In this document: positions 842 through 2,368 of the stretch, piece after piece
How positions within the stretch are numbered: the stretch's first letter is position 1
Layout of the letters: every line of letters starts with the position of its first letter
Virus record (IMG/VR): IMGVR_UViG_2711768004_000007
Reading direction: 5' to 3' (one strand)
Origin: a virus
Taxonomy: Duplodnaviria; Heunggongvirae; Uroviricota; Caudoviricetes
DNA: 6,385 nucleotides
Position numbers and translations under genes: made by a program
The notes under the pieces: model-generated
What the model was told of the DNA's origin: nothing
Database searches by the model: none
What the model saw: the letters and a program-made list of their open reading frames with translations, nothing else

Positions 842-1900
842 TCATCCGTTCTGGCTGACTAAATCCTGTACTTCCCGAACCGTCTGCTCAAAACGTTCAG
901 TCTCCAGCTCAACGCCAATTGCACGACGCCCGAGCGCCAGTGCCGCTTTCACTGTCGAACCCAACCCCATGAAAAAATCTGCAATCAGGTCACCCGGACG
1001 ACTGCTAGCGCTGATTATCTGCTGCAGCATTTCTGCCGGTTTTTCGCACGGATGTTTCCCGGGATAGAACTGCACCGGTTTATGCGTCCACACATCGGTA
1101 TACGGCACCTGCACCGTCACGCCAAAATACCGCCGCAGATGTTTATATTCACTCAGCAGCTCCGCATACTGCCGGTTCAGTGAGGTATACGTATCCACCA
1201 GCTGGTGGTGGAGCTTTTCCAGTTCACCACGCCGATGCTTCTCTTCTGCCACCCGGGCAAACAGCGCCTGTAATTTCAGATAATCGCTTTCATTCGGCAA
1301 CTGCCACTGACCGGCACTGAACCAGTGCGACACCATGTTTTTCTTTCCTGTGGCATCTGCAATCTGTTTTGCCGTTATCCCCAGGGCAGCTCGCGCATCA
1401 CGAAAGTAAGAAATCAGCGGGGCCATCACATGCTGTTTCAGTGCACTGCCCTTCGCCGCATACCCGGCATCTTTCGGACGATACGGCCCCTGATAATGTT
1501 CCGCGAACAGAATGCGCTCTGTGGCGGGGAAATACGCCCGCAGGCTTTCCTTGTTGCATCCGTTCCAGCGTCCGGACGGCTTCGCCCAGATAATATGGTT
1601 CAGCACACTGAAGCGTTCACGCATCATGATTTCGATATCAGATGCCAGGCGATGACCACAGAACAGGTAAAGACTTCCGGCAGGTTTCAGCACCCGCCAG
1701 AACTGCGCCAGACACTGGTCCAGCCACTTCAGGTAATCATCGTCGCCCTTCCACTGGTTATCCCAGCCCTCAGGCTTCACTTTAAAGTACGGCGGGTCCG
1801 TGACTATCAGGTCAACAGAATTTTCGGGTAACGACCGGATAAATTCCAGGCAGTCGGCGTTGATTAACTCACAACTGGATATTTTTACAGTATTAAGCAT
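842..1900 (-). CDS. DNA N6-adenine methyltransferase, DPPY motif N-terminal and FxGxG SAM-binding motif C-terminal (phage Dam-like orphan MTase), 352 aa
   Basis: ORF 842..1900 contains ...VDLIVTDPPYF... near the N-terminus and ...DFFMGLGSTVKAALALGRRAIGVE... near the C-terminus, the motif IV then motif I order typical of beta-class amino-MTases. No adjacent restriction endonuclease gene. Confidence 0.88.
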   Translation of the reverse strand: MLNTVKISSCELINADCLEFIRSLPENSVDLIVTDPPYFKVKPEGWDNQWKGDDDYLKWLDQCLAQFWRVLKPAGSLYLFCGHRLASDIEIMMRERFSVLNHIIWAKPSGRWNGCNKESLRAYFPATERILFAEHYQGPYRPKDAGYAAKGSALKQHVMAPLISYFRDARAALGITAKQIADATGKKNMVSHWFSAGQWQLPNESDYLKLQALFARVAEEKHRRGELEKLHHQLVDTYTSLNRQYAELLSEYKHLRRYFGVTVQVPYTDVWTHKPVQFYPGKHPCEKPAEMLQQIISASSRPGDLIADFFMGLGSTVKAALALGRRAIGVELETERFEQTVREVQDLVSQNG

Positions 1901-1932
1901 GGATCATTAAGCCTGTCTCTGATAGGCTCATT

Positions 1933-1951
1933 CTGCTTTTGCGCAAAGCAG
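1933..1951. promoter_or_regulatory. 19-bp imperfect dyad CTGCTTTtgcgcAAAGCAG in the methyltransferase leader (candidate operator or RNA hairpin)
   Basis: 7-bp arms ctgcttt/aaagcag around a 5-nt centre; lies about 30-50 nt upstream of the MTase ATG at 1900. Confidence 0.25.
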
Positions 1952-1992
1952 TGGGCCTGAGGTTTGCTTGTGAACCCAACGCATGAGCAGAT

Positions 1993-2023
1993 GGCTGGTG
2001 GGTGCCCCTAACACCCACCAGCC
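1993..2023. repeat. Perfect 12-bp inverted repeat (hairpin) with 7-nt loop
   Basis: ggctggtgggtg (1993..2004) and cacccaccagcc (2012..2023) are exact reverse complements; each arm carries the Chi octamer GCTGGTGG (plus strand 1994..2001, minus strand 2015..2022). No T-tract follows on either strand. Confidence 0.6.
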
Positions 2024-2038
2024 GCCCATTTACCACAA

Positions 2039-2064
2039 ATAAAAAAGCCTTCACTGCGGAAGGC
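2039..2064 (-). terminator. Rho-independent terminator overlapping the stop codon of the 65-aa ORF
   Basis: Minus-strand RNA GCCUUC-CGCAGU-GAAGGC (6-bp stem) followed by UUUUUUAUUUG. Confidence 0.55.
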
Positions 2065-2248
2065 GTCTGTAACAACCGAACTGATAGTCTGCCAGACCCG
2101 CCATAACCAGCTGGGTCAGTATTAACTGGCAGCGTTCGCGTGAAAGGTAAGTATTCTGCGCTATCTCCCCGACTGTCGCCGGTTCGGTAACGCTTAATTC
2201 ATTAAACACCACTCTGGCGGTTTCTGTCATATCCTGCTGTTTTAGCAT
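2051..2248 (-). CDS. Small (65 aa) winged-helix DNA-binding protein, FaeA/PapI-like by sequence pattern
   Basis: AAGGA Shine-Dalgarno 6 nt upstream of the ATG at 2248. The segment ATVGEIAQNTYLSRERCQLILTQLVMAGL resembles the recognition helix and wing of PapI/FaeA and the LexA N-terminal domain (recalled, not searched). First gene downstream of tR'. Confidence 0.55.
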   Translation of the reverse strand: MLKQQDMTETARVVFNELSVTEPATVGEIAQNTYLSRERCQLILTQLVMAGLADYQFGCYRRLPQ

Positions 2249-2368
2249 GTCTTTTCCTTTTCCGGTTAACGTGACACACCAATAACTCTTGTCGAAAAAG
2301 CCAGCAAGCTGAAAGACAGGTATTCACCGCCACCAGCGCGTTTACTGTACTGACGCGATTTCAGTCAT

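Follow-up and report, generated by a model that had tools for sequence, protein, structure and literature searches.

Organization of the locus

We analyzed a 6,385-nucleotide (nt) stretch of viral DNA (Caudoviricetes; IMG/VR record IMGVR_UViG_2711768004_000007), hereafter called the window, with emphasis on the region leading into a DNA adenine methyltransferase (MTase) gene. This region comprises a small open reading frame (ORF) encoding a 65-amino acid (aa) protein, a spacer of 150 nt that contains a structured leader RNA, and the MTase gene itself. All genes of interest are on the minus strand. The window represents the "moron" region in the late operon of a lambdoid prophage, where the antiterminator gene Q marks the start of the operon. 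A tR'-like terminator lies downstream of the presumed pR', and the 65-aa ORF, which has AGGA 7 nt 5' of its ATG, is the first ORF after this terminator. A preliminary description of this DNA had listed that ORF, two hairpins, an imperfect dyad, an MTase with a DPPY motif and a GATC 1 nt 5' of the MTase ATG, and all of these are indeed found there, on the minus strand. As assessed by a terminator and promoter scan, the minus strand between Q and the MTase gene contains two intrinsic terminators and zero promoter-like sites. The segment is composed of the following features.

3294..2473, minus strand: antiterminator Q gene, 273 aa (PF03589 Antiterm, E=1.6e-53; quuQ/Q in homologous Stx2 phages)
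2392..2373, minus strand: tR'-like intrinsic terminator, AACCCGC..GCGGGTT then TTTTTA (terminator scan and sequence reading)
2248..2051, minus strand: 65-aa winged-helix ORF (PHROG 331, E=1.4e-37; AlphaFold2 model)
2064..2047, minus strand: P0, terminator-like hairpin GCCTTC/GAAGGC, with a T-run at 2046..2037 (terminator scan)
1901..2032, minus strand: structured leader RNA, non-coding (alignments, covariance model, folding z score)
1901..1906, minus strand: UGAUCC, which includes the GATC at 1902-1905, directly 5' of the start codon (sequence)
1900..842, minus strand: M.EcoGII-type beta-class N6-adenine MTase, 352 aa (PF01555, E=7.9e-42; 93% identity)

A covarying leader RNA ends at the methyltransferase start codon

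The spacer of the window folds well beyond chance, with a z of −4.62 relative to dinucleotide shuffles. The leader, ~130 nt long and ending with UGAUCC just ahead of the AUG, folds into a three-way junction (P1, P2, and P3) followed by two hairpins (P4 and P5). Its helices, with lengths in base pairs (bp) where relevant, are the following.

2028-2024 with 1956-1952, minus strand: P1, UGGGC/GCCCA, closing the three-way junction
2023-2012 with 2004-1993, minus strand: P2, a perfect 12-bp stem in the window, 12-13 bp across the family
1991-1982 with 1972-1963, minus strand: P3, 10 bp with an internal loop
1951-1945 with 1939-1933, minus strand: P4, the "imperfect dyad" (CTGCTTT-GCGCA-AAAGCAG, 1951..1933), with a core GCUUU/AAAGC
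1929-1924 with 1914-1909, minus strand: P5, just before UGAUC(U/C)AUG

Upstream of these helices, P0 overlaps the stop codon of the small ORF. With its 6-bp stem, 4 GC pairs and subsequent TTTTTTATTT, it qualifies as an intrinsic terminator. The P0 stem covaries among relatives (CG, UA, and GC types), and its T-run is degraded in several of them, so that terminator function is not universal.

From the raw MAFFT alignment (62 leaders), RNAalifold recovered P1, P4, and a portion of P2 but nothing else, because the loops were misaligned. This was solved with a covariance model, built after nhmmer searches from 62 distinct leaders on a hand-curated structure. In the resulting alignment, 82.9% of cells pair, versus 29-45% with slid partners, and compensatory changes occur in 27 of 38 pairs, counts that are biased upward since this alignment was fitted to the structure. 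None of 500 shuffles reached any of five measures. In the unfitted MAFFT alignment the signal is weaker yet significant, with 78.4% of cells paired and a covariation score reached by 0/500 shuffles. Compensation is readily seen in individual stems. P2 changes from GGCUGG/CCAGCC to GACUGU/ACAGUC in Providencia or GCGGUG/CACCGC in Serratia, and P1 from UGGGC/GCCCA to UGAGC/GCUCA in Mixta (locus L016) and to UGGGG/CCCCA in Gilliamella. These data show that the leader has a covariation-supported fold. Two further candidate features were rejected. An internal ATG (MGGWWVL...) opens ORFs of 3-51 codons in shifting frames, a spread that marks the leader as non-coding rather than encoding a leader peptide. 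A pseudoknot between the P2 loop (UUGGUAG) and CUA(U/C)CAG pairs in 59.9% of cells, no better than slid or shuffled controls.

While the stems covary, the junction nucleotides GAAAUGGGCG, CCAU, and AACCAAGGCCCA are invariant from E. coli to Vibrio, and the runs AAATGGGCGGCTGG, CCAGCCAT, GGCCCA, and AAAGC are shared even by E. coli and Morganella spacers. Nucleotide identity to divergent loci is 67-83% in the spacer core, 62-78% in the MTase coding sequence (CDS), and 54-66% in the small ORF. The leader is therefore more conserved than both flanking genes, and no part of the locus is better conserved than its hairpins, which had at first been treated as incidental. Conservation at the nucleotide level, including synonymous positions, is also seen across Enterobacterales in the opening ~20 nt of the MTase CDS (window 1892-1900; ATGAAAAATACTGTAAAAAT in most relatives), and the constraint on the leader may thus extend into coding sequence.

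The leader RNA tracks the methyltransferase gene

Covariance-model matches lie directly upstream of the MTase gene in the window, in 65 enterobacterial loci, in four Vibrio loci and in one Gilliamella locus, which gives a range from Escherichia to Proteus, Vibrio, and Gilliamella. The 3' end of the leader is at a fixed distance from the MTase start codon, with continuous conservation into it. When IMG/VR was searched with a leader-only DNA pattern, the MTase gene was next in 117 of 118 testable loci, the remaining one being a chance match inside a large ORF. Of 5426 complete E. coli genomes, 2270 contain the segment running from the winged-helix ORF through the leader to the MTase start, with up to seven copies each.

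The Vibrio loci with the leader (L071-L073 and L084, e.g. L072 1770-3526) have a different gene order, consisting of a 98-aa ORF, the leader, a Com-like ORF, and the MTase gene. The Com-like ORF encodes a zinc-ribbon protein (CxxC..CxxC, 41-45 aa), which scores below the threshold of PF10122 (E=0.0016, 18.3 versus 22.9 bits). It overlaps the MTase start, and its ATG occupies the position of the enterobacterial MTase ATG, so that what the leader follows is whichever start codon comes first in the modification operon. No such PF10122-type ORF is present in the window between 2050 and 1900. The 98-aa ORF is unrelated, or undetectably related, to the small ORF of the window, and homology between the two, for which hhalign gives a probability of 2.5%, cannot be claimed.

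In Rfam 15 there is no minus-strand match at E<=1 over 1901-2050, nor any match over the leader in 10 diverse loci, and the exact leader sequence strings are absent from the papers searched. The known small RNAs (sRNAs) AsxR, AgvB, Pas sRNAs, StxS, and STnc100 were considered and rejected as identities of the leader, their published positions being different. The leader is thus apparently an undescribed RNA family, one that falls among cis-acting mRNA leaders, a known kind. It is the new element of the locus; both proteins are of known kinds and already annotated.

The methyltransferase is an M.EcoGII orthologue

The MTase had previously been described as Dam-like. Bioinformatic analysis instead places it in the beta class, since only PF01555 (N6_N4_Mtase) is matched and there is no match to the Dam-type, alpha-class D12 domain (PF02086). 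The order of motifs is that of beta-class enzymes, with DPPY (residues 35-38) before FxGxG (FMGLG, residues 310-314). The MTase shares 324 of 349 residues (93%) with M.EcoGII, including the entire first 102 residues. The M.EcoGII reference sequence was taken from the machine-read PDF supplement of the SUPREM paper (PMC11551740), so a few of the mismatches may be transcription errors. As judged from sequence, the MTase is an M.EcoGII orthologue, and this level of identity predicts a sequence-non-specific enzyme modifying adenine in any context.

M.EcoGII and M.EcoGI come from E. coli O104:H4 prophages and are non-specific adenine MTases, the former modifying adenine whatever the surrounding sequence (Murray et al. 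2018, PMC5778455). M.EcoGII is reported to be silent in the lysogen, and its constitutive expression does harm (PMC5778455). The anti-restriction role suggested in the preliminary description agrees with this literature. The same study names phage 1720a-02 as having a very similar MTase (PMC5778455), and we found this phage to be 94.7% identical to the window at the nucleotide level over the MTase gene and the small ORF. In a methylome study of Shiga toxin-producing E. coli, the label "nonspecific" is given to homologues of about 93% similarity (PMC6602927).

The 65-aa protein is a winged-helix protein unrelated to PapI/FaeA

The AlphaFold2 model of the 65-aa protein, computed from a 29-sequence alignment, displays a canonical winged helix with a confidence (pLDDT) of 92. 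Helices H1-H2-H3 (9-16, 26-33, and 37-49) are followed by a beta-hairpin wing (53-62). The winged helix suggested earlier was thus confirmed, and the proposed likeness to PapI/FaeA was not. The window protein has no match to PF04703 (FaeA) at E<=1, and none of 29 family members matches at E<=10, whereas genuine PapI relatives all match. Aligning the 65-aa family with the PapI family alignment by hhalign gave a probability of 0.59% over 13 aligned columns, and no preferential structural similarity to PapI/FaeA was found.

The annotation of PHROG 331, to which the protein belongs, is unknown function, and database names are either "hypothetical" or, at NCBI, "TrmB family transcriptional regulator." TrmB (PF01978) scores only 18.0 bits against the window protein (E=0.0026), below the cut-off of 25.6. 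Weak TrmB matches are seen in 23 of 29 relatives (best E=3.3e-4), and DprA_WH is matched equally often (best E=6.8e-6), so the TrmB label reflects a generic winged helix-turn-helix (wHTH) resemblance. Weak MarR_2, TrmB, and DprA_WH matches are the sole resemblances in profile libraries, and a profile search of PDB sequences with the 65-aa family retrieved only the wHTH domains of O-methyltransferases (E about 1e-3). On this sequence evidence the protein is neither a PapI/FaeA relative nor a bona fide TrmB. The family is narrow, with 61 proteins at E<=0.001 and 33 at E<=1e-10, mostly near query length, in a phmmer search of 1.84 billion representatives; the library carries no names, so the family of these 61 proteins cannot be read from it. 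The protein evolves quickly, with 46-52% identity among divergent relatives.

Pairing of the small ORF and the methyltransferase gene is frequent but dispensable

In nine annotated phages, from Escherichia, Shigella, Citrobacter, Hafnia, and Morganella, a homologue of the small ORF lies 138-153 nt ahead of the MTase gene, and in Morganella, Providencia, and Hafnia phages the pairing is kept down to 46% protein identity. In an IMG/VR sample of 80 contigs encoding the identical 65-aa protein, the MTase gene follows at 150-151 nt in 73 of 74 testable loci; 6 contigs stop at their boundary, and one (L100) has an AraC-like gene instead. By contrast, only 38 of 80 species-representative genomes with an MTase homologue have the small ORF. 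Some 20 of 58 species-level loci from enterobacteria have kept both the leader and the MTase gene but not the small ORF, whose place is taken by Q directly or by unrelated morons. No other gene fills the slot separating tR' from the leader as often as the small ORF, which persists from Escherichia to Proteus. Co-occurrence of the two genes, which the preliminary description had proposed to survey, is thus frequent without being obligatory; the pairing is old, but dispensable.

Loci without the winged-helix ORF carry in this slot a 79-aa Cys-rich zinc-ribbon-like protein (L023/L024, 2058-2297), ~220-aa proteins of unknown function (L019/L022/L054, about 1640-2336), or a 299-aa protein (L038, 1383-2282). 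Such varied cargo between Q/tR' and the leader indicates that the slot behaves as a moron insertion site. In L100 (2702-2893) and in phage PhiR5_1 (PV340545.1, about 18267-18302), the small ORF is still followed by the leader up to and including P2, whereas the remainder and the MTase gene are replaced; in L100 the replacement is a low-GC AraC-like gene, with the breakpoint within the spacer. Since both breakpoints are in or just after P2, this region appears to be a mosaic recombination junction. One search hinted that many Stx2a phages have the MTase gene without the small ORF. A leader-centered search did not confirm it, and we make no such claim for 933W-like phages.

A conserved GATC adjoins the start codon

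The GATC at 1902-1905 is 1 nt from the MTase ATG (CAT at 1898..1900). GATC is depleted in the window, with 6 sites (1902, 2890, 3057, 3875, 3992, and 4741) versus 22.6 +/- 4.2 expected, and every dinucleotide-preserving shuffle contained at least 6. Yet 58 of 67 distinct leaders have a GATC next to the ATG, as TGATC(T/C), GGATCT, or CGATCT, and this site is kept across genera, including in 16 of 22 leaders without the small ORF. There is no canonical GGAGG Shine-Dalgarno (SD) sequence ahead of the MTase gene. UGAUCC is complementary to GGAUCA at the 3' end of E. coli 16S rRNA, and because of this complementarity we infer that the conserved GATC is part of an atypical ribosome-binding element rather than of a methylation switch.

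Neighboring features of the window

The remainder of the window has the layout of homologous prophages and includes the following features.

4730..3672, minus strand: DUF968/HNH protein (late-region gene order)
3671..3291, minus strand: RusA (late-region gene order)
801..552, minus strand: three tRNA genes with anticodons CAT, TCG, and TCT (ARAGORN; Rfam tRNA matches)
475..286, minus strand: STnc100 sRNA homologue (RF02076, 123.6 bits, E=1.2e-27)

The same gene order is found in phiP27 and in Stx2a-converting phages (86-94% nucleotide identity), where stx comes after the tRNAs. Despite this layout of the tRNA cluster, there are no stx genes in the window, and the STnc100 homologue, downstream of the tRNA cluster, occupies the stx position. 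A weak second partial STnc100 match (59-247, minus strand, 21.8 bits) overlaps a terminal inverted repeat. This repeat of 107 nt, formed by the window ends 1-107 and 6279-6385, is 100% complementary and resembles an artefact of assembly or fold-back more than a biological feature. The first tRNA (726-801, minus strand) is tRNA-Met (CAT) by ARAGORN, and its annotation is inconsistent because Stx-phage homologues are named ileZ/tRNA-Ile in some records and tRNA-Met in others. An isrK-like match at 5218-5299 (minus strand) is below threshold (RF01394, 25.8 bits versus a gathering score of 50, E=0.017); it covers a GC-rich hairpin upstream of nin-region genes, just before a run of N at 5335-5415.

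A model for leader function

We propose, with a probability of roughly 0.6, that tR', the winged-helix gene, P0, the leader, and the MTase gene form a widespread late-operon module of lambdoid prophages in which the leader acts in cis on MTase translation. MTase transcription would be carried out only by Q-modified RNA polymerase reading through tR' and P0, late in lytic growth. This is suggested by the two terminators that separate Q from the MTase gene, by the lack of promoter-like sites in that interval, and by the toxicity of constitutive expression, and it fits the silence reported in lysogens. The leader would then act on translation, with UGAUC beside the AUG in place of an SD sequence. 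The Vibrio loci, in which a Com-like ORF stands behind the same leader, lend comparative support to control at translation initiation.

Two further pairings can be drawn within the leader. The 5' strand of P1 (AUGGGC) can form an alternative helix with the 5' strand of P3 (GCUCAU), which excludes the junction, and the P3 segment G(G/A)UCA(C), which is 16S-like, can pair with UGAUC in an anti-SD-like manner. They are possible in 94.3 and 94.1% of cells, respectively, with <=50% in slid controls for both, percentages that are inflated because the helices were derived from the consensus. Together, they suggest the hypothesis of an ON fold and an OFF fold of the ribosome-binding site (RBS). In one fold, the 5' strand of P1 would pair with GCCCA and the junction would form. 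In the other, exclusive of the first, it would pair with GCUCAU of P3, freeing the 16S-like G(G/A)UCAC, which could then pair with UGAUC. Switching between the two would open or close the RBS, and candidate triggers are the MTase itself, the winged-helix protein, a metabolite such as S-adenosylmethionine (SAM) or S-adenosylhomocysteine (SAH), and co-transcriptional kinetics. A stronger version, in which the leader is a new class of RNA switch gating M.EcoGII translation, either as a SAM/SAH riboswitch or as an operator bound or methylated by the MTase on invariant unpaired adenines, appears to us unlikely. The winged-helix protein might be a second input to such a switch.

The winged-helix protein could bind the leader, the MTase or DNA, or be merely the ancestral moron of the site; most likely, it is a nucleic-acid-binding accessory factor of the module, ancestral but replaceable by other morons.

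Several points weigh against this model. In the two switch helices, changes are nearly absent or confined to one strand, so that real covariation support is lacking, and the percentages for these helices, like the pair counts of the fitted alignment, are inflated as noted above. In the window, the anti-SD-like segment reads GUUCA, which has one mismatch with UGAUC. Using a second model (R2), no leader was detected at distant MTase homologues in Aliivibrio, Psychromonas, Shewanella, and some Morganella, Erwinia, and Pantoea loci, so the leader is not essential to the enzyme family. The winged-helix protein may have no relation to the MTase. More generally, everything proposed for the function of the leader and of the module is inferred from comparison of sequences.

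Alternative explanations

The explanation offered in the preliminary description was that a PapI/FaeA-like protein and a Dam-like MTase form a GATC-methylation switch of the phase-variation type acting on the MTase leader. It could draw on the winged-helix fold, the conserved GATC beside the ATG and the frequent adjacency of the two genes, but it is largely refuted, and we give it next to no credence. The small protein shows neither sequence, profile nor preferential structural similarity to PapI/FaeA, and with a beta-class M.EcoGII orthologue, predicted to be non-specific (PMC5778455), in place of Dam, such a switch would have no enzymatic basis. The interval holds a single GATC, versus the paired Lrp-flanked GATCs of pap-type switches, and this GATC is kept where the small ORF is missing. 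Compensatory base changes, moreover, indicate RNA pairing and not a DNA operator. This last point also bears on a model in which the winged-helix protein, as a transcription factor analogous to restriction-modification controller (C) proteins, binds the spacer dyads as DNA operators and times MTase transcription. A small protein with a DNA-binding fold encoded directly upstream of the MTase gene, palindromes in the spacer, and weak MarR, TrmB, and ArsR-type matches suggestive of DNA binding are all in keeping with this model. We nevertheless find it quite improbable, because stems that alter their sequence yet keep pairing are unexpected for a protein operator, the spacer is equally conserved where the 65-aa protein is absent, and the protein evolves much faster than its putative operator. 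In addition, no promoter-like site separates the small ORF from the MTase gene, and C proteins are Xre-type helix-turn-helix (HTH) proteins paired with restriction genes, neither of which is in the window.

The spacer might alternatively be a trans-acting sRNA with host or phage targets, released from the late transcript by processing or terminated at hairpins of its own, rather than an MTase leader. The pR'-proximal moron region of lambdoid prophages is indeed rich in Hfq-bound sRNAs such as StxS, AsxR, AgvB, and STnc100 (PMC4104026), an STnc100 homologue is present in the same window, and a terminator hairpin with a U-tract lies just ahead of the element. However, its 3' end is tied to the MTase start codon by a fixed distance and continuous conservation, the MTase gene (or the Com-like ORF and MTase gene) is next in essentially every case, a terminator is lacking on its 3' side, and it matches no Rfam sRNA family. 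An sRNA is thus improbable. Little probability also attaches to the view that the hairpins are only terminators, insulators or recombination junctions of mosaic modules, travelling with the MTase gene without a regulatory function. P0 does fit an intrinsic terminator, and the L100 and PhiR5_1 breakpoints, where the MTase gene is replaced, are compatible with a junction. On the other hand, P1-P4 have no T-runs. Invariant junction nucleotides from E. coli to Vibrio, covarying stems, and conservation of the leader above that of the accompanying CDS together point to purifying selection on the RNA itself.

Comparison with known systems

The enzyme does not differ from M.EcoGII/M.EcoGI in any of the features compared, which include the identity of 93%, the beta-class motif order and the location in a prophage late region. 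What the M.EcoGII papers (PMC5778455, PMC7544214) do not describe is the upstream winged-helix ORF and the leader, lysogen silence being put down to prophage repression. The likeness to PapI/FaeA (PF04703) is limited to small size (65 versus 77 aa) and a generic winged-helix fold. Homology is not detectable, the setting is a phage late operon rather than a fimbrial operon, and the window has neither paired Lrp-site GATCs nor, by prediction, a GATC-specific MTase. Similarly, although a small protein with a DNA-binding fold is encoded just upstream of a DNA-modification gene, as in restriction-modification systems, C proteins use an Xre-type HTH on C-box DNA upstream of their own gene and of the R gene, whereas the present protein is a winged helix, dispensable, and without a restriction gene.

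In principle, the module resembles com-mom of phage Mu, where a harmful DNA-modification enzyme controlled at translation is also expressed late and the start region of its mRNA lies in a conserved RNA structure, and Vibrio relatives carry a Com-like ORF overlapping the MTase start behind the same leader. It differs in that a Com-like ORF is absent from the window, Mom belongs to another kind of enzyme than the methyltransferases, nothing known in Mu corresponds to the junction and hairpins of the leader, and Dam/OxyR control of Pmom has no evident equivalent in the window. With RBS-occluding leaders (SAM-II, SAM-V, preQ1-II, and ribosomal-protein leaders), our leader shares a multi-stem junction, invariant junction nucleotides, covarying stems, a position directly 5' of the start codon, and a plausible alternative pairing with the RBS. 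Unlike them, it has no Rfam match, its switch helices lack covariation support, and its ligand or binding partners are candidates only.

Significance

M.EcoGII is widely used as a footprinting reagent based on N6-methyladenine, is the prototype of sequence-non-specific adenine MTases and is toxic to cells. How phages restrain it has so far been put down simply to prophage silence, and an RNA structure fused to its start codon makes this question directly testable. Two tempting annotations are corrected, as the small ORF does not encode a PapI-like protein or a true TrmB and the stx-adjacent MTase is not Dam. The leader, which occurs in about 40% of E. coli genomes and in Stx2-converting phages and reaches Vibrio and Gilliamella prophages, is a further candidate family of cis-regulatory RNAs in Enterobacterales, a group with few left to discover. 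If the leader were the new class of RNA switch described above, such a switch on M.EcoGII would have sat unnoticed in this large share of E. coli genomes and in Stx phages.

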